The position numbers were made by a program, and so were the translations under genes. The notes below the pieces were generated by a model. That model ran no database searches and was not told the origin of the DNA. It saw only the letters and a program-made list of their open reading frames with translations. DNA of 63,975 bases, the filler included. It is 8 parts of 8 records of this genome, joined end to end, with 100 filler letters (N's around TTAATTAATTAA, not from the genome) between each part and the next. Parts side by side here need not be neighbours in the genome. Positions count along the whole stretch, not along the records: positions 42,801 to 52,040 come from SRR31147125_28286; 7 more parts are not named here. One strand, given 5' to 3'. Positions 10,350 through 57,615 of this stretch are shown piece after piece; position 1 is the stretch's first letter; every line of letters starts with the position of its first letter.

Positions 10350-10449
10350 NNNNNNNNNNNNNNNNNNNNNNNNNNNNNNNNNNNNNNNNNNNNTTAATTA
10401 ATTAANNNNNNNNNNNNNNNNNNNNNNNNNNNNNNNNNNNNNNNNNNNN
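10350..10449. other. Artificial contig spacer
   Basis: 44 N + TTAATTAATTAA (stops in all frames) + 44 N. Confidence 0.99.
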
Positions 10450-16184: not shown

Positions 16185-16284
16185 NNNNNNNNNNNNNNNN
16201 NNNNNNNNNNNNNNNNNNNNNNNNNNNNTTAATTAATTAANNNNNNNNNNNNNNNNNNNNNNNNNNNNNNNNNNNNNNNNNNNN
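16185..16284. other. Artificial contig spacer
   Basis: N44-TTAATTAATTAA-N44. Confidence 0.99.
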
Positions 16285-26593: not shown

Positions 26594-26693
26594 NNNNNNN
26601 NNNNNNNNNNNNNNNNNNNNNNNNNNNNNNNNNNNNNTTAATTAATTAANNNNNNNNNNNNNNNNNNNNNNNNNNNNNNNNNNNNNNNNNNNN
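26594..26693. other. Artificial contig spacer
   Basis: N44-TTAATTAATTAA-N44. Confidence 0.99.
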
Positions 26694-35312: not shown

Positions 35313-35412
35313 NNNNNNNNNNNNNNNNNNNNNNNNNNNNNNNNNNNNNNNNNNNNTTAATTAATTAANNNNNNNNNNNNNNNNNNNNNNNNNNNNNNNN
35401 NNNNNNNNNNNN
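35313..35412. other. Artificial contig spacer
   Basis: N44-TTAATTAATTAA-N44. Confidence 0.99.
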
Positions 35413-37689: not shown

Positions 37690-38790
37690 TTACAAATTAT
37701 CGATTAAAACCCATGCCAGCTTGCCTGTCTCACCATCAAATTTATTGTGAAAGAGAGCGATTTTTGCTGCTAATTTGTAGTCTCCATTTTTTGTTGGAAG
37801 AACTTCGAAGGATTTAATCTTGCCTTTGTGCGGAGTGTCTTTTAATTTAAATTCTAGAATTTGACCTGTTTTGAATGTCTTTCCTGTGAGTATACTTTTT
37901 GCTGTTCTTTTATCTCCAGTTATTTTGGGTACGAATTCCTTTTGTCGCTGTGTCTGGTTTCCCGGCTTGCCAATGCCGCTGCAAAACTTTTGAGCTTCTT
38001 CATACTCTGTTTCTAAAAAAACATCCGTATCGTTTGACATTGAGTTGTCTACAGTAACTTCATATGGATTTTCTATAAGATCTATTTTGCTACAATCAAC
38101 AGACCTTTGTTTGTCGAATTCATAAACTCTATCGGGCTTGCCATCACCATCAATGTCTCCAATTTGAATAACCCTCGAATCTCCTTTTTGCTCCCACTTG
38201 CTTATACCTGGTATTTTCTTTTTCGTTGGATTTCCAGTGGTTTCGAAATGTTCATAATCTTTCTTCCACCCATTTGTTGCTTTTGAAAAATCTTTTTTCC
38301 ACCCTTTCATTTCTTGTGCAAATGCGGACTTATCTATTCCAGCTGTTTTCATTTCTTCTTCAGTCGTTAATTGCTCAGAACTCATCATTAAAAATTTGCT
38401 ATAGAGAGAATATATTTTATTAATTTTGGTAGAATTGAATTTAGGGTTGGAACACTGCTCAGCTCCTATTTTACATAGGCGATGGTTGATTTCTCTTTCT
38501 CCGAGTACACCGTCTCCACCCTTATCGATAATAGAAATGTCATCTTTTTTAGTTGTTAAATTTTTACACTTTAGAAAGACAATAGGAATCAGTTTCTTTG
38601 TTTTGCTATCTGTTATTTTAGTAGCTGTAGCAGTGCATAGAGAGTCTTTTGCTTCGAATTTAAGCTGATTTGTTTCTATCTTTGTTGTGTGTACAGTTTT
38701 GCTTGAAGCGGTCCCAGAAATTGTAGTTTTTTCAGTTTTTGCTTTTGGGCTGTTTTTAATAATAAAATTGTATATCTTTCCTGGTTTCAT
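37690..38790 (-). CDS. Orphan Lys-rich protein, paralog of 40713-41924
   Basis: Start MKPGKIYN at 38790 with AAGGAG RBS; shares N-domain and C-domain with 40713-41924; GDIDGDGKPD Ca-loop-like motif. Confidence 0.75.
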   Translation of the reverse strand: MKPGKIYNFIIKNSPKAKTEKTTISGTASSKTVHTTKIETNQLKFEAKDSLCTATATKITDSKTKKLIPIVFLKCKNLTTKKDDISIIDKGGDGVLGEREINHRLCKIGAEQCSNPKFNSTKINKIYSLYSKFLMMSSEQLTTEEEMKTAGIDKSAFAQEMKGWKKDFSKATNGWKKDYEHFETTGNPTKKKIPGISKWEQKGDSRVIQIGDIDGDGKPDRVYEFDKQRSVDCSKIDLIENPYEVTVDNSMSNDTDVFLETEYEEAQKFCSGIGKPGNQTQRQKEFVPKITGDKRTAKSILTGKTFKTGQILEFKLKDTPHKGKIKSFEVLPTKNGDYKLAAKIALFHNKFDGETGKLAWVLIDNL

Positions 38791-38970
38791 TATTTTCTCC
38801 TTTTGTATGCTAAGAGCTTCTAAATCAATTATCGTCACAAGCCCATGTAATGTTGTTGGAGAAAATATATTTCCGTGTACTGGAGTATACATGGTTGAGG
38901 AAAAAGGAGGCTTGTATGGCTGTACCTGATCTTTGGAATGGTTAGTTTGTAGTATTGTGTATGTCTTAAT

Positions 38971-39009
38971 AAAAAAACACGCTATTTAGCCTTCTAAATA
39001 GCGTGTTTT
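38971..39009. terminator. Terminator, copy 2 of a duplicated element
   Basis: AAAACACGCTATTTAG-CCTT-CTAAATAGCGTGTTTT. Confidence 0.75.
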
Positions 39010-39028
39010 ATCTTTTTTTTATCATTTT

Positions 39029-39613
39029 TTACAAGAAAACAGGTATGCCGTTGTCTCCAGGATAGCTTCTTGGAAGTTCTTTATATTCTGCTGTGCAGTC
39101 TTTTCGTTCTGTATATAGTAGTGAAGATTTTGCTATTTCATTTTTTTGGCTCATTATATCGTTTAATAACACTTGGATAGCAGCTTCATAACCATCAGCT
39201 TTGCCTGTTTCACTTCTTGAGTAGCAGGACATAGAGTTTATGGCTATGTCGATGACACCATATGGGTCGCAAAAGGCCCACTCTCTTTCTGGACTTGTGT
39301 TTGTTCTCCAAGCTTTCATGCTCCAGCGTTTTGTTGATGAGTTGTATGTAAAGTCAATTCTTCCGCCTCTAAATAGACCAACTCTAACTTCACTATCGAA
39401 ATCTACGGAAACCTTATAATTGCCATTTCTTGCCTCTCCTGTGACTACAATATCATCATCAATGGCATACCAGGGCTCTGATTCACAAATCATCTGGATT
39501 CTACCTTCATGGTGTCCATTTGATGTTCTCGTGTTTTCCAAGTTCAAGTTGTCAAATTCTGCGCTGAATTTGCACGGTAGTTTTCCCAAACCTTTGATTT
39601 CACACTGTGTCAT
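39029..39613 (-). CDS. Orphan Cys-containing hypothetical protein
   Basis: 194 aa, AAGGAG RBS, six Cys, no Sec signal. Confidence 0.65.
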   Translation of the reverse strand: MTQCEIKGLGKLPCKFSAEFDNLNLENTRTSNGHHEGRIQMICESEPWYAIDDDIVVTGEARNGNYKVSVDFDSEVRVGLFRGGRIDFTYNSSTKRWSMKAWRTNTSPEREWAFCDPYGVIDIAINSMSCYSRSETGKADGYEAAIQVLLNDIMSQKNEIAKSSLLYTERKDCTAEYKELPRSYPGDNGIPVFL

Positions 39614-39811
39614 GTCTCTCTCCTTTGTTAGCCCCCGGTTTTCGATTGTTTCAAAGATTTATAAAGGATCTGATTTGACGTCAATCTAGGTTTAACGGGA
39701 GGTATAAGAAACTGTTTGCATTTGAAAACACCTGAACTTAGGTAGGTAGGCAGGTAGATAGGTAGGGCAGGTACGATGAATCAATGAATTAGTGTCTGTA
39801 TTGAGAGGTTC

Positions 39812-40669
39812 TTATGGCTTTTTATGGGGGGCTTGTTTTGAAAAGAAGGTACTTATCGTAGTCTTGATATCGTTTGGTATTTTATTTTTATAGAATTTTA
39901 TGGATGCTAGGCTTAAGAAGCTTGAATGGTCCTTGATAGCAGAGATTATTTTTAGGAAACCGTAATTATGTGGAGAGAAAACTCCATCATATTTTTCTAG
40001 GATTCTACAGAGTGAGATCTTTATCAATTCTTTTTCTGTCTTTGTTGTGTCTCCATCAATCATAAGTTTCTTATCAAGGTCGTTAACGATTTCCCATGCT
40101 TTGTCTCCAATATCTACGGAAACCATGAGAAGGAGCCAGTCTTTAGGTCTAAAGTGTCTTAATACCAGTGAAGCTAAAGCTTTGTCTGTGTTTGAGGGGG
40201 TGAATTTGATGTATCGAATTATTTTTTCAATTGGAGAAAAAAGGTGAAACTTTAGTTCTTCATTTATTGAAACATCACCTTTCAGAGAATTCCAGGTGCT
40301 AGTGTTTTCTGAATAAATAGCCATAGATTCTGCGAGGTCGTTTATAATTAAATATTCTGGATCTGTTGAACCGAGGTTGGTTGCTTGGAAATCTGCAAAG
40401 GATAGCACTTTATCAAAAGATGATGATTTTTTAAGTCCTTCGAAAACATTGTTTCTGTCTGTGTTGTTTAGTCTTGCCAAATCATATATTATGGAGTCAA
40501 ACTTGTTAGTATTTGCATTTAATTGAAGTCCCGGTTTTTCTTTGTCTGCATCATAGCGTTGCATAAATTTGCTATAAGCCATCTTTTTAAATAGTATTGT
40601 ATCACCATCAAGTTCATATTTTTCTGGGTCTGGTTTTGATGCTTCTTTGTATAGCTTGCTTAGATTCAC
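39812..40669 (-). CDS. Orphan hypothetical protein (N-terminus MNLSKLYK)
   Basis: 285 aa, GTG start with GAGGA RBS. Confidence 0.7.
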   Translation of the reverse strand: MNLSKLYKEASKPDPEKYELDGDTILFKKMAYSKFMQRYDADKEKPGLQLNANTNKFDSIIYDLARLNNTDRNNVFEGLKKSSSFDKVLSFADFQATNLGSTDPEYLIINDLAESMAIYSENTSTWNSLKGDVSINEELKFHLFSPIEKIIRYIKFTPSNTDKALASLVLRHFRPKDWLLLMVSVDIGDKAWEIVNDLDKKLMIDGDTTKTEKELIKISLCRILEKYDGVFSPHNYGFLKIISAIKDHSSFLSLASIKFYKNKIPNDIKTTISTFFSKQAPHKKP

Positions 40670-40712
40670 GATTATTCCTCGGCTAATAAATAATAATGAG
40701 ACGTATGTTTAA

Positions 40713-41924
40713 TTACTGGGCTGTTTTGATGAGGCTCACGTCGTCGATTGAAATCATTTTTATTTTACCGTATATTCCGGATCCCCAATCGCTAAATTCT
40801 TTTTTGGTGGAGCCGGCTACGGGAAGCATTCTACCTATTTTTAAATAGAGTGTTTTTTTACCGAAATCATCGAATCCTTTAATCTTTCCCGCATATCTTT
40901 TGCCCTCGTGTTTGAATTCAACAATATCGTTTAGTTTGTATATGACATTATTTGAATCTTTCATCTGTGTTAATTCGATATTGCCATGTTCGCCCCATAT
41001 TTTTTTACCCGTAATGATTTTGTGTGTAACTGTTGTTTTTGTATGAGTTGTTGCGTCTTTTTTGTCTACGATATCTGTCTTTGAATAAATTGTTACACCT
41101 TTTTCTTCGTCTGCTGGTATCTTGGACGATTTTACAAAATCTTTCATTGGTGTGTTTATATGTTTTTTAAATTCCGAATCAAGTTCGGGATATTTCTTGT
41201 CAATCTCAGATTTATCTCCTAATAGAGCTTCTGCATCTTTGCTTAGTTTTTTGAGGGTAGGATCGTTTGTAAGAGATTCTTCTGTAATGGGGGAGGTATC
41301 ATTTCCCCAATCCTGGGCTTTTTTGTCGACTTTATTTCCCCAATCCTGGGCTTTTTTATCAACTTCATTTCCCCAATCTTCTGCTTTTATATCATAATCA
41401 GACCCACCTTTTTTCATCTTAGCTGAATGTTTCTTTTTCCATTTGGCCATCTCTTGTTTGTGAGCTTTTTTATCAATACCAACTGAAGTCATTTCTTCTT
41501 TGTTAGATAGAGGTTTGCCGGTTGTTACTAAGAGCTTTTGCATGCTGTAATAAGTAGAGTTTATCTTTTTAAGATCGATAGTTGAACAGGCGTCTCCCTT
41601 AAAAGTGCACTCTTGGTGTTTTTGTTCGTCTTTCCCTATTTCTCCATCGCCATATTTGTCTATAATTGAAAGATTCATTTCTCCTGTGGCCTTCCATTTG
41701 CATTTTAAAAAGACAGTTGGCACAAGCTGGCCCGTCTTTGTATCGATGATCTTTGAAGCTTTAGTTGAACAGATAGAGTTTGCTGTTTGGAATTTCATAG
41801 TAGCAGCTTTCTCTTTCTTAATACTCGTTTTTAGATCAGATGCCTTTCCTTCAATTATAGTTTTTTCAGATATAGACTTTGAACCGTTTTTAATAATGTG
41901 TTTATATAATTTGCCTAATTTCAT
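40713..41924 (-). CDS. Orphan Lys-rich protein, paralog of 37690-38790
   Basis: MKLGKLYK start with AAGGAG RBS; conserved VFLKCK, SIIDKxGDG, GIDK. Confidence 0.75.
   Translation of the reverse strand: MKLGKLYKHIIKNGSKSISEKTIIEGKASDLKTSIKKEKAATMKFQTANSICSTKASKIIDTKTGQLVPTVFLKCKWKATGEMNLSIIDKYGDGEIGKDEQKHQECTFKGDACSTIDLKKINSTYYSMQKLLVTTGKPLSNKEEMTSVGIDKKAHKQEMAKWKKKHSAKMKKGGSDYDIKAEDWGNEVDKKAQDWGNKVDKKAQDWGNDTSPITEESLTNDPTLKKLSKDAEALLGDKSEIDKKYPELDSEFKKHINTPMKDFVKSSKIPADEEKGVTIYSKTDIVDKKDATTHTKTTVTHKIITGKKIWGEHGNIELTQMKDSNNVIYKLNDIVEFKHEGKRYAGKIKGFDDFGKKTLYLKIGRMLPVAGSTKKEFSDWGSGIYGKIKMISIDDVSLIKTAQ
41301..41399. repeat. Coding tandem repeat, 3 x 33 bp (KAQDWGNxVDK)
   Basis: ATTTCCCCAATCCTGGGCTTTTTT.. 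unit repeated at 41301, 41334 and 41367. Confidence 0.85.
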
Positions 41925-41947
41925 TGTTTTCTCCTTTGTGGCGCGGT

Positions 41948-42700
41948 TTAATTGTACGTGCTTTCAAATGATTCAAACTTTTCGCTTAATTTTAAGTATT
42001 CTACTTTGAATATGGTTGTTATTGCGTCATATGCAGCCTCTAGTTTGGTAGTGTAGTTCTGGTATTCTGAGTTGATTTGAGTGCTGAATTGTGAGTGCAA
42101 AGCAGCATATTCTTTTGAAAGAGTGCTGTGCGCCTTACCGAAAGCGCTACTCATAAATTCTCTTTTGTTGCTTAGTTTATTATTCACGCTGCTTATGACG
42201 AGATTTAGAATTTTAATCTTTTTTAAATGGCTTTGAAGACCTTTGTAACCCTCGTTATTGCTGGGATCCTTGTCCCAAATCTGATCAAGTCCCTTAGTTG
42301 CAATGTCTTCTAGTCCTTGAGCCTGCTTTTTATATGTGTTGAAAAGTTTTGTTGCTTTGCTCAAGAATTTCGAATGCTCCGCTTTAATTGATTCGACAAA
42401 TTCTGAATGAAATTTTGTAGCTTTAGAGTTGAAACCCTTGTTAATTAGTTCAATCGTAAGCTCAAACTTTGCATGAGATGTTTTAATTCTTTTCTCGTAT
42501 TTCTTGTGTGCATCTTGAAGTTTACCCCACGAATTTCCGGCTTTATCAGCATATTGTTTGAAATACTCAAGACCTTTTGTGTATGAGCTTGAGCTCTTAG
42601 CAATATCTAAATAGTAGTCTTTTCCCATTGAGTATGAACTGTCACTTTTTGCCTGCTCAAGATAGTATTTTGAACCCTTGGAGTGCGAGCTCTTGCTCTT
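41948..42700 (-). CDS. Helical/coiled-coil hypothetical protein with 17-aa repeats (5' truncated)
   Basis: Frame open to the contig edge; SSHSKGSKYYLEQAK / SSYSMGKDYYLDIAK / SSYTKGLEYFKQYA. Confidence 0.65.
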   Translation of the reverse strand, partial: KSKSSHSKGSKYYLEQAKSDSSYSMGKDYYLDIAKSSSSYTKGLEYFKQYADKAGNSWGKLQDAHKKYEKRIKTSHAKFELTIELINKGFNSKATKFHSEFVESIKAEHSKFLSKATKLFNTYKKQAQGLEDIATKGLDQIWDKDPSNNEGYKGLQSHLKKIKILNLVISSVNNKLSNKREFMSSAFGKAHSTLSKEYAALHSQFSTQINSEYQNYTTKLEAAYDAITTIFKVEYLKLSEKFESFESTYN

Positions 42701-42800
42701 NNNNNNNNNNNNNNNNNNNNNNNNNNNNNNNNNNNNNNNNNNNNTTAATTAATTAANNNNNNNNNNNNNNNNNNNNNNNNNNNNNNNNNNNNNNNNNNNN
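42701..42800. other. Artificial contig spacer
   Basis: N44-TTAATTAATTAA-N44. Confidence 0.99.
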
Positions 42801-42847
42801 TTTTTGAGTTAGAGCTAAACTGCTTATAGATAGTTCGGCTGCTGCAA

Positions 42848-43786
42848 TTAAATTTCTAATAGATCTTTTGCAGTAATTGAATCTGTAATTAAAACATTGC
42901 TATATCCACCAACTAATGTAGCGTGAATTGATCTTGCAATATCTTTGTCAGATGATATACAGACAGAATAATCTTTTGATTTAAGTAAGTCAAGGCTATG
43001 ACCAATTACTCTGTCTTCATAGTTTTCATCAACGACTTTTCCTTCATCATCAATAAAATGACCATATACTTCAGCTACAGCGCCTTTTGATTTAATAGTT
43101 TGTATTTCTTGTGAAGAAAAATACTCACATTGAGCCAACATGGATTTTTCATGCACTAGATTTGCTGAGAAAAGAGCGATATTTGTTTCTTCAAGCAATT
43201 CGAGAATATACTTGATATTAGGTGAACGATGCAAAGAATCTCTGACTTCAATATTTTCAACAACAGCTGGTGCAGGAAAATAATAATAAGTAGCATCTGT
43301 TTTTAGACTTGATTCACGTACAGTATCATATAAATATCCTTTTACATGCTCACTCATTGCACCACAAAGTTGTAAAAAGGTTAGATTTTCGTAATGGATT
43401 GTAGGCAAAAATCTTGGTATTTTAGAAGTTATTTCACTAAATGCAAGAGCTACACTATCATTCATTTGCATAATATTTACCAAAAATTCGGCTGCCGCTT
43501 TTGCAACATCAATTTTAATTATTCTATAATCTTCAACTTTTACATCAACAATCTTTGCAGATTTTAAATTATATTTTTTGCATATATCTTTAGACAAATT
43601 TTCAGCTTTTGAAAAAGGATCATTTACAAAAGTTTGTACATACCCATTTTCTTTTGCATAATTAATCAGTCTCGAAACTTGAGGTATGGATATATTTACA
43701 ATTTTAGATATTTCATCCTGTGTTAGATTATCCTCGAAGTAAAATTTCGAAACCAAAATAACTTTTTTTAAATCTGGCTTTTTCAT
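42848..43786 (-). CDS. SorC/DeoR-type sugar-binding transcriptional regulator
   Basis: YFEDNLTQDEI..VSRLI..GYV HTH; PAPAVV, GAVAEVYGHF, LITD sugar-binding domain. Confidence 0.9.
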   Translation of the reverse strand: MKKPDLKKVILVSKFYFEDNLTQDEISKIVNISIPQVSRLINYAKENGYVQTFVNDPFSKAENLSKDICKKYNLKSAKIVDVKVEDYRIIKIDVAKAAAEFLVNIMQMNDSVALAFSEITSKIPRFLPTIHYENLTFLQLCGAMSEHVKGYLYDTVRESSLKTDATYYYFPAPAVVENIEVRDSLHRSPNIKYILELLEETNIALFSANLVHEKSMLAQCEYFSSQEIQTIKSKGAVAEVYGHFIDDEGKVVDENYEDRVIGHSLDLLKSKDYSVCISSDKDIARSIHATLVGGYSNVLITDSITAKDLLEI

Positions 43787-43866
43787 CTTATACCTTTCTT
43801 ATGCTGTTAAAATCATTTAATTATTTAATTATAGTATCAATAGTATACAAATGCAATAGAAAAAAA

Positions 43867-43884
43867 TTTCATAAAAATATGAAA
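43867..43884. promoter_or_regulatory. Putative operator palindrome
   Basis: TTTCATA-AAAA-TATGAAA just upstream of the -35 box. Confidence 0.45.
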
Positions 43885-43900
43885 AAATTTTCAAAAACCA

Positions 43901-43929
43901 TTGACAGCTATAAATTGTTTGTTTATAAT
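43901..43929 (+). promoter_or_regulatory. Consensus sigmaA promoter
   Basis: TTGACA-17 bp-TATAAT perfect consensus 33 bp before the ATG at 43963. Confidence 0.85.
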
Positions 43930-43962
43930 TTATTCATAATTAAAAATTCGAAGGAAATTATT

Positions 43963-45027
43963 ATGGCATATACAAATCGCGAAAGAGTTCTGGATGCGTT
44001 GGCAAAAAAAGAAACTGATAGAGTTCCGTTCGACTTTTGGGCAACGCCAGAAATCCTTGAAAAGTTAAAATTATATTTTAATACAGATTGTGTGACAGAT
44101 TTTCTGGATGAGCTTGATATTGATATAAGACAGTTTAATCCTGATTATATTGGTCCAGAATTTGAAGTTTTGGAAGATGGAAGCTATATAGATGCTATGG
44201 GGATTAATAGGAAAAGTCAGGTAAATGAATTTTGCGTGTATGAAGAGTATGCGAGTTTTCCATTGGGATATGCTGAATCAGTTAAAGATTTAGAAAAATA
44301 TGAAAATTGGCCAGATATAGATAAATATGATTTTAGTACTCTTAGTGACAAAATTGGAGATATGTATAAGACCCATTATATTAAAATCGAAACAGGAGGG
44401 TTGTTTGAACTTGCATGGGCGTTGAGAGGATATGAGCAGTTTATTATAGATATGATGCTTCAACCAGAGCTTTGTGATTTTATAATGACGAAACTTACTG
44501 ATTATTATTGTGAGTATGTAAAAAGAGCTATGGAAAACGCAGGAAGCAAAATAGATATGGTTTATACATATGATGATATTGCAGCTCAGACTACTCCAAT
44601 GATGTCTATGGATACTTGGGAAAGGATAATCAAACCACACCATGTTAGGTTGAATAAAGTTATAAAATCTTATAGAAAGACAATCATGTATCATTCATGT
44701 GGAGCTGTGTATGATTTTATACCAAGGCTTATTGAATTGCCGATTGATGTTTTAAATCCAATTCAAGTTACAGCAAAAGGTATGGATATTCGTAAAATTA
44801 AAGATAATTTTGGAGATAAGATATCATTCCATGGCGGAGTTGATATTCAGTACTTGCTTCCGAGCGGGTCTGTTGATGATGTAAAAGCGGCAGTGGAAGA
44901 GCTTATAAGTGTATTAGGTGAAAATGGTGGATATATTTTGACAAGTGCACATTATATTCAAGGGGATACCCCATTAGAAAACATTATTGCAATGTATGAG
45001 GCAGCAAAAAATTATAGAAGACAATAA
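43963..45027 (+). CDS. Uroporphyrinogen decarboxylase / MtaA-CmuA family protein (probable corrinoid methyltransferase)
   Basis: RERV..DRVP, LRGYE, YDDIA, YHSCG, LNPIQ, FHGGVD, GGYIL..AH; retains the HxCG Zn-type motif. Confidence 0.85.
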
Positions 45028-45044
45028 AAAGGAGTGGAATAACA

Positions 45045-45808
45045 ATGAGTTTTAATAGTATTGAACATCATATTGATATGAAAAAAGGCGACGTTGGTAA
45101 ATATGTAATCTTACCAGGAGATCCAAAGAGGTGTAAAATTATTGCTGAATATTTTGATGATGCAAAGCTTGTTGCAGACAAAAGAGAATATGTGACTTAC
45201 ACAGGTTATATGGATGGCGTTAAAGTTAGTGTTACATCAACAGGTATCGGGGGACCTTCTGCTGCAATTGCAATGGAAGAATTAGTGCATATTGGAGCTG
45301 ATACTTTTATAAGAGTTGGAACATCTGGCGGAATGGCAGAACATGTTTTAGGCGGAGATGTTGTTATAGCAAATGGAGCAATTAGAAAAGATGGAACAGG
45401 TAAAGAATATTTGCCAGTTGAATATCCTGCTGTTGCGAACTATGAGATTGTGAATGCGCTTGTTGATGCATCAAAGGATTTAAATCAAAAGTACCATGTT
45501 GGAGTATGCGAATGTAAGGATTCATTTTATGGACAACATGAGCCAGAAAAAAAACCTGTATCATATGAGCTTTTAAACAAATGGGATGCATGGGTTAAAG
45601 GAGGAGCATTGACATCTGAGATGGAATCTTCAACTTTATTTATTGTAGGTGCGTGTTTAAGAGTTAGAGTAGGATCAGTTTTATTAGTTTGTTGTAATCA
45701 AGAAAGAGAAAAAAAGGAATAGAAAGTCCTCAATGTAATGATGTACATATTCCAATTAAAGTTGCAATAGAGGCGCTTAGAAAGCTAATTGCACAAGATA
45801 GAAAATAA
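45045..45808 (+). CDS. udp: Uridine phosphorylase, frameshift near 45712
   Basis: [38 protein letters not shown]-terminal [12 protein letters not shown] in the shifted frame. Confidence 0.88.
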
Positions 45809-45833
45809 AATTTAGGAGTAATAATAGCGTTGC

Positions 45834-46793
45834 ATGAGTGATTTTAAAAGAAAAGTTATTATAGATACTGATTGTGGTTCTGATGATGCTATGGCAATTG
45901 CAATGGCATTAAATGATAAAAGTGTAGAGATTATGTTTTTTGTTGCAGTTCATGGGAACGTACCTATGGAGCAAGCGGCGATAAATACTTTGACTACAAT
46001 AGAATATTCAAATTCTTATGAGCCACCTGTATATCGTGGATGTGAAACTCCATTGATTAGAAAAAGTGAGTTTGCATATGAAACTCATGGCGTTGATGGC
46101 ATGGGGGGTATTGGGCTTAAGCCAGAAAAACTTAAAATTGCTGATGGGTACGGTATTTTAAAAATGTTGGAAGCTTTAGAAGAATCAGAGGACGGTGAAA
46201 TAGAGATTATAACTTTGGGAACATTGACGAATATAGCAATTGCTATAAAAATGGCTCCTGAAACTATGAAGAAAGCAAAAAGGATCTCGATGATGGGGAC
46301 ATCAGGTCTTGGCGTTGGAAATGTAACACCAGTTGCTGAATTCAATATTTGGCAAGATGCAGAGGCGGCAAAGATTGTTTTTGATAGTGGTTTGCCAATT
46401 TTGGCAGTTGGCTGGGATGCGTGTCTTGGTGAAGCAATGCTATGGCAAAAGGATATAGATAAAATAAAAAACGGATCGAAACTTGGAAAGTTTACAATAG
46501 ATTGTAACAAACAACTAGCTGAGCTAAACCGTGAAAGATTTGGCGAAAACGTATTGGATATGGCTGATCCAGCTGCAATGGCAGCAATTTTATATCCAGA
46601 ATGTATTAAAGAAAACGGTGAATATTATTGTGAAATTGATATTAACAATGGAATCGGTTATGGAAATGCTATGATTTACGATTGTGAATATTTTGCCGAT
46701 AAAAAACCAAATTCAGAAATATGTAGTGCGCTTGATGGTGGTAAATTTAAAGACTATTTATTTAAGACACTATGTGAATCACAAGAAAGTTAA
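45834..46793 (+). CDS. Nucleoside hydrolase (IU-NH family)
   Basis: IIDTDCGSDDA, HGNV, HGVDGMG, GNVTPVAEFNIWQD, DPAA. Confidence 0.92.
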   Translation: MSDFKRKVIIDTDCGSDDAMAIAMALNDKSVEIMFFVAVHGNVPMEQAAINTLTTIEYSNSYEPPVYRGCETPLIRKSEFAYETHGVDGMGGIGLKPEKLKIADGYGILKMLEALEESEDGEIEIITLGTLTNIAIAIKMAPETMKKAKRISMMGTSGLGVGNVTPVAEFNIWQDAEAAKIVFDSGLPILAVGWDACLGEAMLWQKDIDKIKNGSKLGKFTIDCNKQLAELNRERFGENVLDMADPAAMAAILYPECIKENGEYYCEIDINNGIGYGNAMIYDCEYFADKKPNSEICSALDGGKFKDYLFKTLCESQES

Positions 46794-46797
46794 TTAG

Positions 46798-47958
46798 GTG
46801 CATATCTTGAATTTGAGTAAATATTTTAATAAATTTTTATGTGTTTTGATGTTTTTTATGGGCATGTTTTTTGTGGGGAACCAGCTATTAGTTCACTATG
46901 TAAACGAATCCATAGGTGGATCTGATATATATCAAGGATATCAACTTACAGCTATGTATGTAGGTTCACTTTTATCGGTTTTGATAATGGGCGAAATATC
47001 TGAGAGGATAGGTAAAAGAGTTGGAATTGTAATAGCTTCTTTATGTTATAGCGCTGGCGCAGCATTTGTTGCTTTTTCAGATAATATAGTTTTTGCAGCA
47101 GTGGCGTTTTTCGTATTTGGTGCAGGAACAGGTTCAATAGAAGGAGTGTTATTTTCACTAATAGGTGACTATAACAAAGAAAAAACCAATAAATATATGA
47201 ATCTTGGTCAAGTGTTCTTTAGTATCGGAGCTGTTATTAGTCCTTTAATAATAGATTATGTTATTGGGTATATAGGTTATAAACCAATATATCAAATAAT
47301 GTGGGGATCAATGTTTTTGCTTGCTATATTCTTCTACTATGCAAAAAGTATAGATACTTTTGTAGTAAAAGAACAAAAGAGTGCTAAGGGAATGGCTATT
47401 TTCAAGGTGTTGAAAAACCCTGCGATGATAATATTGATGTTTACATTGATGATTACAATTGGATGTGAAACAGCTTTCACTTATTGGTTAGCAAATTTCT
47501 TTGAGGACTTAGGTGCTTTTGAGCTTTCGGCTATGGCACTGTCTGCATATTGGATAGCTAGTATACCGGGGAGATATGCTAGCAGTCTTGCAAAGAAGCA
47601 TGAAAGATATTTAATGTTTTCGTATTTGCTTAGTGCTGCAGGTGTAGTGTTAATATTGGTCTTACCTACGCCAGTATTAAAGATTTTTGGAATTGTAGTG
47701 CTTGGATGGGGATTGGCTCCAGCTTACCCAACTCTTAGTACAATGGGAGCAAGCTTAGCGCAAAATAGAAGCGCAGCTGCATTTTCTTTGATGGTTTTTT
47801 CATCTGGACTTGGAGGAGCGTTAGCCCAACCAATTATTGCAACAATTGTAAGTAAGGCTTCTATTACAAACGTATATACTGGCATAAGTATTATTATGAT
47901 AATAGCACTTTTACTAGTTAAGTTAAGCGTAAAGATTAACAAAAATAATGATAATTAA
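46798..47958 (+). CDS. MFS transporter
   Basis: About 12 TM segments, GEISERIGKR motif A. Confidence 0.85.
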   Translation: MHILNLSKYFNKFLCVLMFFMGMFFVGNQLLVHYVNESIGGSDIYQGYQLTAMYVGSLLSVLIMGEISERIGKRVGIVIASLCYSAGAAFVAFSDNIVFAAVAFFVFGAGTGSIEGVLFSLIGDYNKEKTNKYMNLGQVFFSIGAVISPLIIDYVIGYIGYKPIYQIMWGSMFLLAIFFYYAKSIDTFVVKEQKSAKGMAIFKVLKNPAMIILMFTLMITIGCETAFTYWLANFFEDLGAFELSAMALSAYWIASIPGRYASSLAKKHERYLMFSYLLSAAGVVLILVLPTPVLKIFGIVVLGWGLAPAYPTLSTMGASLAQNRSAAAFSLMVFSSGLGGALAQPIIATIVSKASITNVYTGISIIMIIALLLVKLSVKINKNNDN

Positions 47959-48011
47959 GCTTAAACAGGTAGGTCAACTTGTTTATGAAAATAAATACTT
48001 AGGAGATTATT

Positions 48012-48677
48012 ATGTCTAGAGAATCGAAATTTTCAATTAAAAAAGATTTTTCAATGTTAGCTTTGTTGCTAATACCAATCGCTGTTGCGATCAACTTTGT
48101 TGGAGGACAACTTGCAGTTGCACTTAAACTACCATTTTATCTTGACACCATTGGAACAATTTTAGTTGCTATGCTATGTGGACCATGGGTTGGTGGTTTA
48201 GCTGGTTTGATTACAAATCTTGTTCTTGGAATTACAAATCCAGTTTTCTTACCTTTTGCTATTGTTAATGTAGTTGTTGGTATTGTAACTGGTTTCTGTG
48301 CAAGATGGGACGGATTTTCAAAGTGGTGGAAATTTGCTTTATCAATGCTATTTATGGCACTGGCATCATTAATTACAGCTGCACCTATTGTTGTACTATT
48401 ATATGGTGGAATCACAGCATCTGGAACTTCTCTAATAACAGCAACATTGATGGCTACAGGAACGAATATCTGGTCAGCAGTTTTATCAACAGAACTTGTA
48501 TTTACAGTATTAGATAGAATTATATCTGTAGCAATAACATATGCAATTATAAAAGTCATACCTGCTAAAACACTTATTAAGTTCTCACTTGGTAATTTTT
48601 ATATTGGAAAAAATAAGAAAAGTAAAGCCGAAGCCTTTGTAGATGAAGCAGGTGAAGCAGATGAAGCAGATGAATAG
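48012..48677 (+). CDS. ECF transporter S component
   Basis: IPIAVAINFVG, LPFYLDTIGT, GPWVGGL. Confidence 0.85.
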   Translation: MSRESKFSIKKDFSMLALLLIPIAVAINFVGGQLAVALKLPFYLDTIGTILVAMLCGPWVGGLAGLITNLVLGITNPVFLPFAIVNVVVGIVTGFCARWDGFSKWWKFALSMLFMALASLITAAPIVVLLYGGITASGTSLITATLMATGTNIWSAVLSTELVFTVLDRIISVAITYAIIKVIPAKTLIKFSLGNFYIGKNKKSKAEAFVDEAGEADEADE

Positions 48678-48700
48678 TTAATATAAATAAGTCTGTATAT

Positions 48701-48735
48701 ATAAATCACTTCATTAAAGCAATGGAGTGATTTAT
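48701..48735 (+). terminator. Intra-operon stem-loop
   Basis: ATAAATCACTTCATT-AAAGC-AATGGAGTGATTTAT. Confidence 0.55.
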
Positions 48736-48754
48736 TATAAGAAAGGGAATTTTT

Positions 48755-49567
48755 ATGTGGCAAGAGAAGCTCAAAATCAAAAAAGAAAGTTCTTTAGCGT
48801 CACTTTATCCATTTTCTAAATTGATAATAGTTGCGTTATATATTGTTTCTTTATCATTTTTATCAAGCGCAAAAGTAAATGGCTATCCTATATATGGGAT
48901 ATGGTCTTTGTTAGCGGTTTTGATTATGGTATTGCTTACAGGAAAGATAACGACTAAAGCTTTTTTTAAGACTTTTAAGGCGATTTTTTTCTTGGTAGTG
49001 TTTATTGTAATTGTGCAGATAATTGCTGTAAGGAGTGAAGAAATATTATATAGCATAAATGTTTTTAATTTATTTACTATAAATTGTTATAAAGCAGGGG
49101 CTATTTCAGGACTTGGACTTGGAACAAGTATTACTGGCTTTGCTGGGGCGCTTGCTTGGTTTTTTGCTTGCACAGAAAATAAAGAGCTTATAAGTGCTTG
49201 TGAGCAGGCAGGAATGTCACCAAAATCATCATATGTATTACTATCAACTCTTCAAATGATCACAGTTTTGCAAAAGAGCTCAAAGGCTATAATGAGTGCA
49301 CAACAAGCAAGAGGGGTTGAAACTGAAGGCAATGTTTTTGTTAGAACAAAGGCATTTGTTCCTTCACTAATACCGTTAATAATTAGCTCTATTTCTAATA
49401 CAGAGGAAAGAGTTTTAACGTTAGAATCTAAAGGTTTTTCTGTTGTTGGGGAGAGAACAAGACTTTATAAAGTTGAGAAAAATGGAAAAGAAAAATTAGC
49501 AGTTATTATTGCTTCAATTATCACAATTCTTGTTATTTTGTGGAGGTTATTTTTATGGAACCAGTAA
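48755..49567 (+). CDS. ECF transporter T component
   Basis: AQQARG and LESKGF coupling motifs. Confidence 0.88.
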   Translation: MWQEKLKIKKESSLASLYPFSKLIIVALYIVSLSFLSSAKVNGYPIYGIWSLLAVLIMVLLTGKITTKAFFKTFKAIFFLVVFIVIVQIIAVRSEEILYSINVFNLFTINCYKAGAISGLGLGTSITGFAGALAWFFACTENKELISACEQAGMSPKSSYVLLSTLQMITVLQKSSKAIMSAQQARGVETEGNVFVRTKAFVPSLIPLIISSISNTEERVLTLESKGFSVVGERTRLYKVEKNGKEKLAVIIASIITILVILWRLFLWNQ

Positions 49568-50415
49568 TCAAGTTAAATAATGTAAGTTACAGTTACCCGC
49601 TTACTGAAGAAGCTACACTTAAAAATATCAACCTTGATATTGAAAAAGGCAAGTTTTATGGAATAATTGGAGAAAATGGTAGTGGTAAAACAACTCTTTG
49701 TAATGTAATAAGAGGATTTGCACCTGATTTTTATTTAGGGGAGATTAGAGGAGAGGTGCTTTTGTATGGAAAGAATATTTCAGAGTATTCTGCTGGAGAT
49801 ATTTCTTTAAAAATAGGATATGTTTTTCAAAACCCGTTCAACCAAATATCGGGAGTTAAAGAAACAGTATTTGAAGAAGTGGCATATGGGTTAGAAAACT
49901 ATGGTGTCCCAGTTGAAGAAATCGAAAAGCGTGTTGTAGATATTATGGAACTTACTGATATAACTCATTTGGCAGAAAAAAATCCTTTTGAGCTTTCTGG
50001 AGGACAGCAACAACGTGTTGCACTTGCTTCTATAATAGTTTTGGAACCAGATATACTGGTTATTGATGAGCCTACATCACAACTTGATCCAGAGGGAACA
50101 GAGAGCGTTTTTAAAATAATTACAGCTATGAAAGAAGCGAAGAAGACTATAATATTAGTTGAACATAAAATTGATTTAATAGCTGAGTATGCAGATGAAA
50201 TAATCGTGCTAAAAAATGGAGAAGTTATAAAACTTGGCGAAAAACAAGCTGTTTTATCTGATATATCTTTATACGAAAGAGGAATTCAGCTTCCACAAGT
50301 AACTTTATTAGCACATGAGCTTGTGAAAAATGGTGTTGAGTTAGATGAAATTCCGATTACTATTAATCAAGCTAATGAAACTATAGGCAAAAAGTTTAAT
50401 AAAGGGGTGAAATAA
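49555..50415 (+). CDS. ECF ATPase (EcfA)
   Basis: GENGSGKTT, FQNP, LSGGQQQR, DEPTSQLDP. Confidence 0.92.
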   Translation: MEPVIKLNNVSYSYPLTEEATLKNINLDIEKGKFYGIIGENGSGKTTLCNVIRGFAPDFYLGEIRGEVLLYGKNISEYSAGDISLKIGYVFQNPFNQISGVKETVFEEVAYGLENYGVPVEEIEKRVVDIMELTDITHLAEKNPFELSGGQQQRVALASIIVLEPDILVIDEPTSQLDPEGTESVFKIITAMKEAKKTIILVEHKIDLIAEYADEIIVLKNGEVIKLGEKQAVLSDISLYERGIQLPQVTLLAHELVKNGVELDEIPITINQANETIGKKFNKGVK

Positions 50416-51218
50416 TGGCATATTTATCTGTGAAAAATGTTAGTTTTAAATATCCTAATGGCTTTTTGGCTGTTGATGATTTGAGCTTAGAAATCGAAAA
50501 AGGCGAAAATATTGCAATAGTTGGACAAAATGGTGCTGGAAAAACAACAACTGTAAAAATGTTAAATGCATTGGAAAAGCCAACAACTGGTGATGTTATA
50601 ATTGGTGATATTAACACAAAAGATTATACTACTGCGCAGGTTTCAAGAAAAGTTGGATATGTCTTTCAAAATCCTGATGATCAAATTTTCCACTCAACTG
50701 TTTATGATGAGGTAGCATTTGGACTTGAAAAGATGAAATTGCCTGAAGACAAAATCAAGGAAAGATTAAAATATGCTTTAAAGCTTACTGGTATTTTAAA
50801 ACACAGCGGTGAAAATCCATATAACTTACCTTTTTCGCAAAGAAAGTTTGTAACTATAGCGTCAATTATAGCTATGGATGTTGATGTTATGATTTTTGAT
50901 GAACCTACTGCGGGACAAGATCTTATTGGATTAAAAAGGTTGAGTAATATTTTAAAAGAGCTTAATAGATTAGGTAAAACAGTAATCACGATCACTCATG
51001 ATATGCAATTTGTAGTAGAGAACTTTGATAAAGTTATTGTTATGGCGAATAAAAAACTTATTAAAGTTGGAACAACAAAAGAAATATTCTGGGATTTTGA
51101 TTCATTAAAAGTTGCAAAGCTCAAACAACCTTATATTAGCGGGCTTGCTAAAAAAATTGGGCTAGATGGAAATATTATTAGCAAAGAAGAATTTATTGAA
51201 AAGATGAAGGGTCTTTAA
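50415..51218 (+). CDS. ECF ATPase (EcfA')
   Basis: GQNGAGKTT, FQNPDDQ, DEPTAGQD, ITHDM. Confidence 0.92.
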   Translation: MAYLSVKNVSFKYPNGFLAVDDLSLEIEKGENIAIVGQNGAGKTTTVKMLNALEKPTTGDVIIGDINTKDYTTAQVSRKVGYVFQNPDDQIFHSTVYDEVAFGLEKMKLPEDKIKERLKYALKLTGILKHSGENPYNLPFSQRKFVTIASIIAMDVDVMIFDEPTAGQDLIGLKRLSNILKELNRLGKTVITITHDMQFVVENFDKVIVMANKKLIKVGTTKEIFWDFDSLKVAKLKQPYISGLAKKIGLDGNIISKEEFIEKMKGL

Positions 51219-51239
51219 AATTATATTATAACGTTTAAT

Positions 51240-51282
51240 AAGGATGCACCATTATCCTATGAGATCATTAGGTGCATTCTTA
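51240..51282 (+). terminator. Stem-loop after ECF operon
   Basis: AAGGATGCACC..GGTGCATTCTT inverted repeat. Confidence 0.5.
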
Positions 51283-51327
51283 GATTAAACCATATTGCGA
51301 TTAAAGGTGGTGAAAATAGTAGAATAA

Positions 51328-51810
51328 AAGCGTATGATTGAAACTAAAGAAGCGATACTTTCATGTATACCAGAAGCGTGATAAAATTGGTATGATAGCG
51401 TTTAGAAAGGATTTAGCGTAAATACTGCTTCCAATAACAAGGTCAGTTGATTTTGCACAAAAGATGTTGCATGAGCTTCCTACTGTAGGAAGAACACTGT
51501 TTTCTGAAGGCTTTTTGACAGCATTGCAGATGATTCATACGCAAAGAATTAAGGACAAAGTTATGATTCCTCTTTTGGTTTTAGTAACTGATGGAAAAGC
51601 AAGCAGTAAAGGTGGCAATGTAGTGCATGACGCATTACGGTCTGCAAAATTAACTGCTAGTTCGGATACCTCTGCTGTAGTTATTGATACCGAAGCAGGA
51701 ATGTTTCCATTAGGACTTGCAAAAGAAATCTCCATCAATATGAATGCCGCTTATATGAAGGCAGAATAATTAAGAGCAAGTGATTTGAAAGATGCTGCGA
51801 AAGTAAATTA
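51328..51810 (+). pseudogene. Decayed VWA fragment of a ChlD/BchD-like chelatase subunit
   Basis: KRMIETKEAILS / YQKRDKIGMIAFR..LA*ILLPITRS..LPT.GRT..VTDGKA..VIDTE; a frameshift plus two in-frame TAA stops, N-terminus absent. Confidence 0.75.
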
Positions 51811-51962
51811 AAAAAGGTATAATAAATTGTTATGTGGGTTTAAAAGCATTTTCACTTAATTTTTTGTTCAGAATACCGTATACTTTTAAACCGTCATTTT
51901 TGTTAGTTGATAATACATTTAAGATTTAGTATGAAACTTGAAAAACAGATAAATAGAATTAT

Positions 51963-52040
51963 GCGAGCATGCTGGAATTGGCAGAGGGCCTGCCCCAACG
52001 AAGTGAGGATACAGGCACGGTTGTGGTGAGGTAGCCACTG
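51963..52040 (+). tRNA. 5' part of a tRNA-Leu-like gene with two insertions, truncated at contig end
   Basis: GCGAGCATGCTGGAATTGGCAG + ACAGGCACGGTT match the acceptor/D-arm/anticodon-stem 5' strand of Firmicutes-type tRNA-Leu once a 26-nt insert is removed. Confidence 0.5.
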
Positions 52041-52140
52041 NNNNNNNNNNNNNNNNNNNNNNNNNNNNNNNNNNNNNNNNNNNNTTAATTAATTAANNNN
52101 NNNNNNNNNNNNNNNNNNNNNNNNNNNNNNNNNNNNNNNN
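52041..52140. other. Artificial contig spacer
   Basis: N44-TTAATTAATTAA-N44. Confidence 0.99.
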
Positions 52141-52752
52141 GGAATGCCCAGGGTGTCGAAGGGGCGAGCAGGTTCCTGAACAGGGTGTATCGATTCGTTC
52201 TCGATTTTAATTCCGCGCCGCAGAATCAAAGCGATGGGAGCGATGATATCGCATCCTCCGACAACTCCGCTTTACAACGGAAACTGCACCAGACCATCAA
52301 AAAGGTTACCTACGACATAGAGAACAACTTTCATTTCAATACAGCAATCAGTGCCGTGATGGAGTTGTTCAACACCCTCAGTGCCCACACTTCGGAGAAC
52401 AGTAAATACGGTGACGTTCTGGTCAATCAGGCCGTACAGACCATACTGATCCTGCTCTACCCGATGGTTCCCCACTTCTGCTCCGAGCTGTGGCAGGAGA
52501 TGGGGTTTGAAAAATCCCCGGAAGAACAGCGGTGGCCGGAATACGACGAGGCAAAGGCGAAGGAAGAACGGTTGACCATCGTCGTCCAGGTTAACGGGAA
52601 AGTCCGGTCACGCCTCGAGGTGGATGCGGACACTGACGATCAGGTGCTGCAGGAAATGGCGCTGGCCGATGAAAAGATCTGCAGATTCCTCGAAAAAAGC
52701 AGTGAAAAAGGTTATCGTAATCAAGAAGAAACTTGTCAATATCGTGGTTTGA
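52141..52752 (+). CDS. leuS: Leucyl-tRNA synthetase C-terminus (5' truncated, frameshift near 52695)
   Basis: FHFNTAISAVMEL, PMVPHFCSELW, VVQVNGKVR; KVIVIKKKLVNIVV* in the shifted frame. Confidence 0.92.
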
Positions 52753-57515: not shown

Positions 57516-57615
57516 NNNNNNNNNNNNNNNNNNNNNNNNNNNNNNNNNNNNNNNNNNNNTTAATTAATTAANNNNNNNNNNNNNNNNNNNNNNNNNNNNN
57601 NNNNNNNNNNNNNNN
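57516..57615. other. Artificial contig spacer
   Basis: N44-TTAATTAATTAA-N44. Confidence 0.99.

Follow-up and report, generated by a model that had tools for sequence, protein, structure and literature searches.

A Clade of URO-D/MtaA-Superfamily Proteins Linked to Ribonucleoside Cleavage as a Candidate for the Demethylation of 2'-O-Methyl Ribosides

Gene Content of the Locus

The operon described here is located at positions 42848-51218 of a stretch of 63,975 nucleotides, referred to as the window, which consists of 8 contigs joined by 7 spacers of the form N44-TTAATTAATTAA-N44. It is predicted to serve the import and cleavage of ribonucleosides, and its first gene encodes a protein of the uroporphyrinogen decarboxylase (URO-D)/MtaA superfamily, here called the UroD-like protein, which is the main subject of this analysis. 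The contig that carries the operon spans positions 42801-52040 (9,240 bp, 33% G+C) and is delimited by the spacers at 42701-42800 on the left and at 52041-52140 on the right, where the contig end was read directly. The region contains 9 genes in total, 1 minus-strand gene for a regulator and 8 plus-strand genes.

The regulator gene (42848-43786, minus strand) encodes a SorC/DeoR-type protein of 312 amino acids (PF04198, 176.2 bits) and is divergent from the operon. Upstream of the UroD-like gene we identified a sigma-70-type promoter on the plus strand (43901-43929; TTGACA-17 nt-TATAAT), which matched the consensus at 12 of the 12 positions. The total number of promoter-like sites in positions 42500-52200, 44, was no higher than in shuffled sequences (mean 42.9), and the site at 43901-43929 was the only one among them with a perfect match. 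The -35 hexamer was adjoined on its upstream side by 2 copies of a 17-nt direct repeat (GAAAAAAATTTCATAAA / GAAAAAATTTTCAAAAA), which are 22 nt apart at 43859-43897 and represent a candidate operator.

The UroD-like gene (43963-45027, plus strand) encodes a protein of 354 amino acids that scored 88.3 bits against PF01208 and is a candidate metal-dependent methyltransferase that would act as a demethylase. The 9 genes and the consensus promoter described in an initial annotation of this DNA were all found at the positions given there, apart from the start of the UroD-like gene, which had been placed at 43801. This start was rejected, as the resulting open reading frame (ORF) of 408 amino acids would cross its own promoter. 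We instead assigned the start to the ATG at 43963, which is preceded by a GAAGGA ribosome-binding site.

The gene for a uridine phosphorylase, udp (45045-45810, plus strand), was also present as annotated, but its frame is broken in the window. An early stop codon is located at 45720-45722, and the last 28 residues continue in the +1 frame to 45810, with the frameshift in a run of 7 A residues (A7) at 45709-45715. The truncated product of 225 amino acids scored 288.4 bits against TIGR01718, for which the cut-off is 280.3 bits. In the contig from X1, the one public sequencing run that contained the DNA of the operon (0.88 of the sampled words) and that may be the window's own sample, 1 additional A was identified behind position 45708 (A8), which restored the udp frame at a low depth of 4.3. 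The frameshift is, on the basis of this contig, probably a homopolymer error or a strain variant.

The udp gene is followed by a gene for a ribonucleoside hydrolase of the IU-NH family (45834-46793, plus strand, 319 amino acids), which scored 251.4 bits against PF01156 (gathering score 34.2 bits) and contains DTDCGSDD near the N-terminus; the nucleoside hydrolases of this family contain an N-terminal aspartate cluster of the form DxDxxxDD. The score against the RihC model was 197.1 bits, compared with a cut-off of 382 bits, and the protein also remained under the equivalog cut-offs for RihA, RihB, and UriH. Its best solved relative was IunH-2 (3T8I, E = 2.1e-45).

The remaining genes, all on the plus strand, encode transporters. 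The first of these is a protein of the major facilitator superfamily (MFS; 46798-47958, 386 amino acids, GTG start; PF07690, 113.5 bits), and it is followed by a complete energy-coupling factor (ECF) module with the S, T, and 2 A components in one row at 48012-51218. The S component, which captures the substrate (48012-48677; PF12822, 43.6 bits), was nearest to the CD3073 family, with a score below the cut-off of that family (NF045596, 118.1 vs 180 bits). The T component is encoded at 48755-49567 (PF02361, 69.7 bits), and the ATPases A (49540-50415) and A' (50415-51218) both matched PF00005 and scored 244 and 227 bits, respectively, against TIGR04520, which is under the cut-off of 315 bits. 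The family assignments agree with the nucleoside uptake and cleavage operon proposed in the initial annotation, and they support the prediction that the genes form a unit for ribonucleoside import and cleavage.

Sequence and Structure of the UroD-like Protein

The match of the UroD-like protein to PF01208 (gathering score 23.9 bits) was confined to residues 144-351, which represent the C-terminal half of the protein, and the HSCG motif noted in the initial annotation was present. The matches in a protein atlas were to "URO-D family" clusters only, and the family comprised 1,998 clusters at 50% sequence identity (E ≤ 1e-30). The AlphaFold model of the protein had a predicted local distance difference test (pLDDT) score of 91.7, and its fold matches were, in order, MtaA from Methanosarcina mazei (4AY7/4AY8; template modeling [TM] scores of 0.68-0.71), UROD (0.64-0.69), and MetE.

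The zinc site of MtaA and CmuA is of the form His-x-Cys ... Cys, and His244-x-Cys246 of the UroD-like protein aligned with the His-x-Cys of MtaA. Among 110 family rows, His244 was conserved in 109 and His330 in 108, while position 246 contained either Cys (92 rows) or Asp (18 rows). The residues Asp19, Asp205, Gln209, and Gln268 were nearly invariant across the same rows, and the corrinoid-linked members described below displayed the same pattern of His-x-Cys/Asp and His. In the predicted structure, the conserved residues appear to follow the C-terminal ends of successive barrel strands (240-244, 263-268, 288-293, and 324-328), and it is at these strand ends that the active sites of TIM barrels are located.

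Conservation of the Gene Neighborhood

Metagenomes were scanned with aligned sequences of 16 homologs of the UroD-like protein, and 80 loci were obtained; the neighbors of the homologs with at least 39% sequence identity were clustered and named by Pfam and NCBIfam. The gene order UroD-like-udp-IU-NH-(MFS)-ECF-S-T-A-A' was identified in full in loci L002 and L008 and up to the contig ends in loci L005 and L006, and the proteins encoded by these 4 loci were 52% to 83% identical to those in the window. Homologs of the ECF S component were identified in the same 4 loci and in L039. Since the same order recurs in L002, L005, L006, and L008, it is not due to chance. The initial annotation had suggested the conservation of the neighborhood as a check, and both this recurrence and the fusion of a relative to an IU-NH hydrolase, described below, speak in its favor.

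A phylogeny of the 110 family rows inferred with FastTree placed the window in a clade of 33 rows with a support value of 99, and a smaller IQ-TREE run placed it in a clade of 25 rows with an SH-aLRT value of 99. We considered IU-NH, Udp/purine nucleoside phosphorylase (PNP), ribokinase/PfkB, Bmp, cytidine deaminase (cdd), and ECF-S as nucleoside-related neighbors. Such neighbors were found in 12 of the 23 locus rows in the clade of the window, namely L002, L005, L006, L008, L010, L012 (weak), L015, L016, L017, L019, L020, and L022, where L015 to L017 are near-identical copies that were counted separately. The remaining 11 rows were all contigs of 1.3-3.7 kb.

The recurrent neighbors were genes for IU-NH hydrolases, for phosphorylases of the Udp, DeoD, or PNP-I types, for ribokinase/PfkB, and for Bmp/PnrA-type binding proteins along with ATP-binding cassette (ABC) transporter genes. 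Uridine phosphorylase was found in the window, L001, L002, L005, and L008, cdd in L006, DeoD in L022, L032, and L044, and PNP-I in L114, whereas IU-NH hydrolases without base specificity were present in many loci. Functions for ribose handling, by ribokinase or by phosphorolysis, were found throughout the loci, and the ribokinase in L015 was an equivalog (368.9 bits vs a cut-off of 299.65 bits). Because the base preference of the partners varies between Udp, DeoD, PNP-I, and IU-NH while ribokinase recurs, the sugar is the common denominator of these loci. Within the URO-D/MtaA superfamily, the clade that contains the UroD-like protein is a distinct one and is linked to nucleoside-cleaving enzymes and ribokinase.

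Homologs were also identified in the Chloroflexota, where 26 of the 401 sampled genomes contained a match at E ≤ 1e-60. In one of these loci, L001, the homolog is adjoined by 2 Udp-like genes and an MFS gene. No nucleoside genes were seen in a tblastn search of 7 Chloroflexota regions, a negative result that carries little weight because the search missed the phosphorylase in L114 that was later found with Pfam.

The regulator was not part of the conserved neighborhood. No homologs of it were found in the 81 loci of UroD-like homologs, which instead carry GntR, LacI, or AraC regulators or no visible regulator. Its best solved relative was DeoR from Bacillus subtilis (8R7Y, E = 4.7e-43), and it scored 228.4 bits against the equivalog model for this protein (NF053881, cut-off 420 bits). 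The lysine in the QLKGG motif of DeoR aligned with the cysteine in QLCGA of the regulator. We take this lysine (Lys141) to be the Schiff-base site for deoxyribose-5-phosphate, and because it is replaced by cysteine, the effector of the regulator may differ from that of DeoR.

Several other features of the loci were noted. A fusion of a LacI-type repressor and a PfkB kinase (659 amino acids) is encoded at 6922-8901 in L020, directly upstream of the homolog, and the same locus contains 2 transport systems, a Bmp-type and a sugar-type ABC system. In L005, a gene for a PRAI-like protein (phosphoribosylanthranilate isomerase family; 1912-2619, minus strand) is accompanied by a PfkB kinase gene and another IU-NH hydrolase gene, the second in this locus, and is divergent from the UroD-like operon found there. 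In L039, L043, and L045, where the homologs are 40% to 47% identical, the recurrent neighbors include proteins with FGE-sulfatase-like (SUMF1/EgtB-type) domains as well as GntR/UTRA regulators. Finally, 5 tandem paralogs of the URO-D family are encoded at 6949-12383 in L115 (G013:C303), which is from a single Chloroflexota genome, and several Chloroflexota genomes contained 47 to 104 first-look candidates for the family.

Gene Fusions and Corrinoid Context

A search among longer proteins identified 2 fusions, P0122 and P0123, and the same 2 proteins were obtained with an alignment as the query. In P0122 from Vallitalea longa, a UroD-like protein with 58% identity forms a fusion with an IU-NH hydrolase that closely resembles the one encoded in the window. 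Judging from this fusion and from the synteny, the UroD-like protein and the IU-NH hydrolase very likely share a pathway. In P0123, a homolog with 41% identity is fused to B12-binding_2 and B12-binding domains with a DxHxxG motif. This protein was sister to the PfkB-linked homologs in L043 and L047 in both trees, as well as to L045 in the FastTree phylogeny, and was placed inside the wider nucleoside-linked group.

The B12-binding domain of P0123 was used as a tblastn query (E ≤ 1) against all loci and the window, and matches were obtained in L022, L114/L085, and L098 only. The homolog in L022 is 49% identical to the UroD-like protein and falls inside the clade of the window. The gene order in this locus starts with a PNP-AraC fusion, a DeoD-type phosphorylase, a Bmp binding protein, an ABC ATPase, and 2 permeases, followed by a URO-D paralog, the homolog, a convergent MtaA-like URO-D protein, a PocR-AraC regulator, a methyltransferase-type corrinoid protein, DUF2284, and RACo. 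As a separate observation, the protein encoded at 2020-3105 in L022, in which a nucleoside-phosphorylase-like domain (PNP_UDP_1) is combined with a DNA-binding domain of the AraC type, looks like a nucleoside-sensing regulator derived from a former enzyme domain.

In L114 from the Chloroflexota, where the homolog is 42% identical, one strand encodes an ABC permease, an amidohydrolase that resembles deaminases of adenosine analogues, a purine nucleoside phosphorylase (383 vs 218 bits), and an MFS transporter. The other strand encodes an isochorismatase-family protein, a corrinoid protein, a URO-D paralog, and the homolog. Near more distant homologs, RACo was found in L052 and L097 and a corrinoid protein in L098. 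The genome of L001 (G001) contained stand-alone B12-binding ORFs of the size of corrinoid proteins in other places, which faintly suggests that a remote corrinoid partner is possible.

Proposed Function and Alternative Explanations

The consensus promoter would drive the operon, and the divergent DeoR/SorC-type regulator probably represses it. Ribonucleosides would enter the cell via the dedicated ECF transporter and the MFS carrier and would then be split by the uridine phosphorylase and the IU-NH hydrolase. The UroD-like protein, presumed to depend on a metal that is probably zinc, would take the 2'-O-methyl group either off the nucleoside before Udp and IU-NH act on it or off the 2-O-methylribose released by IU-NH, with the conserved metal site acting on the ether oxygen as a Lewis acid. 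The most likely acceptor of the methyl group would be the Co(I) of a corrinoid protein whose gene lies in another part of the genome, and the pentose would feed metabolism via ordinary phosphorolysis or ribokinase. The 2'-O-methyl group is proposed as the substrate because the sugar is common to all loci, because the URO-D-type substrate methyltransferases already known act on O-methyl, S-methyl, and halomethyl groups, and because the abundant form of ribose methylation is 2'-O-methyl.

We tentatively favor the reading that the UroD-like protein is a metal-dependent methyltransferase that removes 2'-O-methyl groups in a riboside-utilization operon, probably in a corrinoid-dependent manner, and would place it a little short of probable. 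Its more specific form, an oxygen-independent and corrinoid-dependent O-demethylase for 2'-O-methylribonucleosides or 2-O-methylribose, is possible and appears rather doubtful. The interpretation in the initial annotation is partly supported and is sharpened here to a putative clade of cobamide-type methyltransferases recruited to riboside catabolism.

The idea that the pathway removes a methyl group was put forward already in the initial annotation, and it has gained indirect support from the fusion to a B12-binding domain and from the corrinoid context in L022 and L114. However, a number of results weigh against it. The UroD-like protein failed the cut-offs of the MtaA/CmuA models by a wide range (60.6 vs 235.4 bits for TIGR01463 and 59.5 vs 400 bits for NF040654) and also that of the HemE model (TIGR01464, 32.4 vs 302.95 bits). 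Its sequence matches to solved relatives were all weak: the E-value for MtaA from M. mazei (4AY7) was 6e-5 with the sequence alone and 0.005 as a profile, and the next matches were to plant UROD (0.027) and CdmB (0.45). The third zinc-ligand cysteine of MtaA, located in PGCGI in 4AY7, aligned with His330 in TSAHYI rather than with a cysteine.

The genomic context raises similar concerns. The gene for the substrate methyltransferase usually adjoins the gene for the corrinoid protein in known systems, but no gene for a corrinoid protein, RACo, or a second methyltransferase was found on the 9.2-kb contig of the operon. Nor were any of these found in the flanks of L002, L005, L008, L012, L015 to L017, L019, and L020, and according to the tblastn search with the single B12-binding domain (E ≤ 1), L022 was the only 1 of the 8 distinct clade loci longer than 3.7 kb that contained them. 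Because other URO-D paralogs are located beside the corrinoid proteins in L022 and L114, these proteins could serve the paralogs. Moreover, the queried nucleoside genes were not found by tblastn across approximately 17 kb in L113 and L118, 2 Chloroflexota loci with well-scoring homologs. To our knowledge, methanol is the only precedent for breaking an alkyl (sugar) methyl ether in a corrinoid-dependent manner. The usual substrates of ECF transporters are scarce micronutrients, which is more in line with salvage than with catabolism in bulk. The initial annotation had also remarked that the window encodes no corrinoid protein, and the tblastn search (E ≤ 1) found none in the rest of the window either. 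As the window consists of concatenated contigs, the window-wide remark is void, and it carries no weight beyond the 9.2-kb contig.

The UroD-like protein could also be a metalloenzyme that acts on a pentose or a nucleoside independently of corrinoids, by hydrolysis, isomerization, or a MetE-like transfer of a methyl group to a thiol, in which case the operon would still be a riboside utilization unit. Such an enzyme would match the His / Cys-or-Asp / His site, which is closer to hydrolytic zinc sites than to the Cys-rich sites of thiol alkylation, and the rank of MetE as the next fold match after MtaA and UROD. It would also agree with the lack of a corrinoid protein in 7 of the 8 distinct clade loci longer than 3.7 kb and with the close homologs in L007 and L011, which adjoin sugar-type TIM-barrel and GFO/IDH/MocA genes. 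It is more difficult to reconcile with the B12-binding domain fused to the homolog in P0123, with the corrinoid proteins near the homologs in 2 independent loci, L022 and L114, and with RACo or corrinoid proteins near the distant homologs in L052, L097, and L098. We know of no enzyme in the superfamily with such corrinoid-independent chemistry and consider this explanation unlikely.

The methyl group might alternatively be bound to sulfur, with 5'-methylthioadenosine (MTA) or methylthioribose as the substrate of an S-demethylase comparable to MtsA, a member of the URO-D superfamily that acts on methylthiols. The amidohydrolase in L114 scored best against TRZ/ATZ chlorohydrolase-type models and next against models for 5'-deoxyadenosine deaminase and MTA/S-adenosylhomocysteine (SAH) deaminase, all below the cut-offs, and the locus also contains an inosine/guanosine-type phosphorylase; a deaminase and phosphorylase pair of this type presumably represents the route from MTA to methylthioinosine. 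The presence of S-demethylases in the superfamily is described in a preprint (PMC10418091). Uridine phosphorylase and cytidine deaminase are, however, unsuitable partners for a substrate that contains only adenine, and the true ribokinase in L015 requires a free 5'-OH on the product, which makes this explanation improbable.

A role directed at the base rather than at the sugar, such as the O-demethylation of 5-methoxyuridine or a similar base, or a UroD-like decarboxylation of a carboxymethylated base, would explain why the partners in the window and cdd in L006 are pyrimidine-directed. His330, at the position of the third ligand, aligned with the histidine in the GH motif of plant UROD, and according to PMC13222342, O-demethylases of the URO-D type classically act on aryl-type methyl ethers. 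Yet other loci have purine-directed partners (DeoD in L022, L032, and L044; PNP-I in L114), so that no base is common to all loci, and neither the conserved His-x-Cys motif of metal type nor the B12 fusion fits a cofactor-free decarboxylase. The probability of a base-directed enzyme is in our view low.

That the operon scavenges ordinary nucleosides, for which Udp, IU-NH, and the transporters would be enough, and that the UroD-like gene is only carried along and has some unrelated function is very improbable given the UroD-like/IU-NH fusion, the linkage in 2 phyla alongside transporters of several types (ECF, Bmp-type ABC, sugar-type ABC, and MFS), and the position of the UroD-like gene as the first gene behind the promoter.

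Other Contigs and Features of the Window

The spacers in the window, each visible as runs of N, are located at 10350-10449, 16185-16284, 26594-26693, 35313-35412, 42701-42800, 52041-52140, and 57516-57615. The G+C content of the pieces ranged from 0.33 to 0.55, and because they span this range, the joined pieces may come from more than one organism, as in a mixed bin. Since the spacers separate contigs, the ORFs before position 42700 and the G+C-rich genes past position 52140 are not neighbors of the operon. Five consecutive minus-strand ORFs at 37690-42628 (400, 194, 285, 403, and 226 amino acids) were considered as part of a deoR operon, and this was ruled out by their location on a separate contig (35413-42700). 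The 5 ORFs are lysine-rich and without a Pfam match at E ≤ 1e-5, and the N-termini of the 400- and 403-amino-acid ORFs look paralogous.

On the contig of the operon, an ORF of 101 amino acids is located at 51464-51769, on the 3' side of the last ECF gene. It had no Pfam match, the frame upstream of it looks broken, and it may be what is left of a gene. The final 80 bases of the contig (51960-52040) are G+C-rich, and a truncated cobalamin riboswitch was considered at this site and rejected, as there was no Rfam match at E ≤ 1. A search of the whole window against Rfam at the gathering score gave no match.

Implications

Anaerobes in guts, digesters, and sediments constantly encounter 2'-O-methyl nucleosides, and the clade identified here represents a concrete and cloneable candidate for the missing step of anaerobic demethylation. 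If the UroD-like protein does remove 2'-O-methyl groups in the corrinoid-dependent manner proposed, this would be the first anaerobic route for the breakdown products of ribose-methylated RNA and the first cobamide methyltransferase system that acts on an alkyl methyl ether of a carbohydrate, and methyl groups derived from RNA would enter the one-carbon metabolism of anaerobes in guts and sediments. The same reading would add a new substrate class for cobamide methyltransferases, identify a nucleoside-type ECF transporter, and account for the large group of genes annotated as "uroporphyrinogen decarboxylase family" (the 1,998 clusters). Even if the corrinoid part were to fail, the tight link to the cleavage of ribosides, which the fusion backs, would indicate that this uncharacterized URO-D clade catalyzes an enzymatic step yet to be described.

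Comparison With Known Systems

In the main texts of the literature searched, we found no link between a URO-D protein or a corrinoid system and nucleosides or methylated sugars, and no paper that brought uroporphyrinogen decarboxylase together with a nucleoside gene cluster and an ECF transporter. The term CD3073 was not found in any paper, nucleoside hydrolase was not found together with ECF terms in the literature matches that were checked, and the word nucleoside had 0 occurrences in the searched text of the mlp-cluster preprint (PMC10418091).

The catabolism of 2'-O-methyl nucleosides is called largely unexplored in a paper from December 2025, in which the only demethylase reported for free 2'-O-methyl nucleosides is the O2-dependent 2-oxoglutarate dioxygenase FJS/PHYHD1 (PMC12709175). 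The net reaction is the same as that proposed for the UroD-like protein, but the fold and the chemistry are unrelated, the dioxygenase needs O2, and no member of its family is encoded in the operon. The IU-NH hydrolases LbNH, AgNH, and RK9NH free 2-O-methylribose and are encoded in clusters with a DERA-like aldolase and a ribokinase, as described in PMC6278475. These clusters have a DERA-like aldolase where the operon in the window has the URO-D protein, as judged from the published description.

The arrangement of the operon is also comparable to that of the deoR nucleoside operon in B. subtilis, as DeoR is the nearest solved relative of the regulator and the regulator gene is divergent from an uptake and cleavage operon. 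Unlike DeoR, the regulator scored under the equivalog cut-off and has a cysteine at the position of the lysine.

The URO-D-type substrate:corrinoid methyltransferases MtvB, OdmB, VdmB, MtoB, and CdmB (9RUI) belong to the same superfamily as the UroD-like protein, and L022 contains the same list of parts as their systems. According to PMC13222342, these enzymes move the methyl group of an ether or a halide onto a corrinoid protein in systems that include a RACo-type activator, and only some of the enzymes contain zinc. That paper and PMC10418091 together name O-methyl, S-methyl, and halomethyl groups as substrates. The sequence likeness between CdmB and the UroD-like protein is marginal (the profile E-value of 0.45), and the known enzymes act on aromatic methyl ethers and halomethanes, whereas the substrate proposed here is a sugar.

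Another close counterpart is MtaA from M. mazei (4AY7/4AY8), which was both the best fold match and the best solved sequence match of the UroD-like protein, with the His-x-Cys motifs aligned. The 2 proteins are, however, only 18% identical, the N-terminal 140 residues of the UroD-like protein are located outside the Pfam match, and the context of the UroD-like protein is the use of nucleosides, whereas that of MtaA is methanogenesis.

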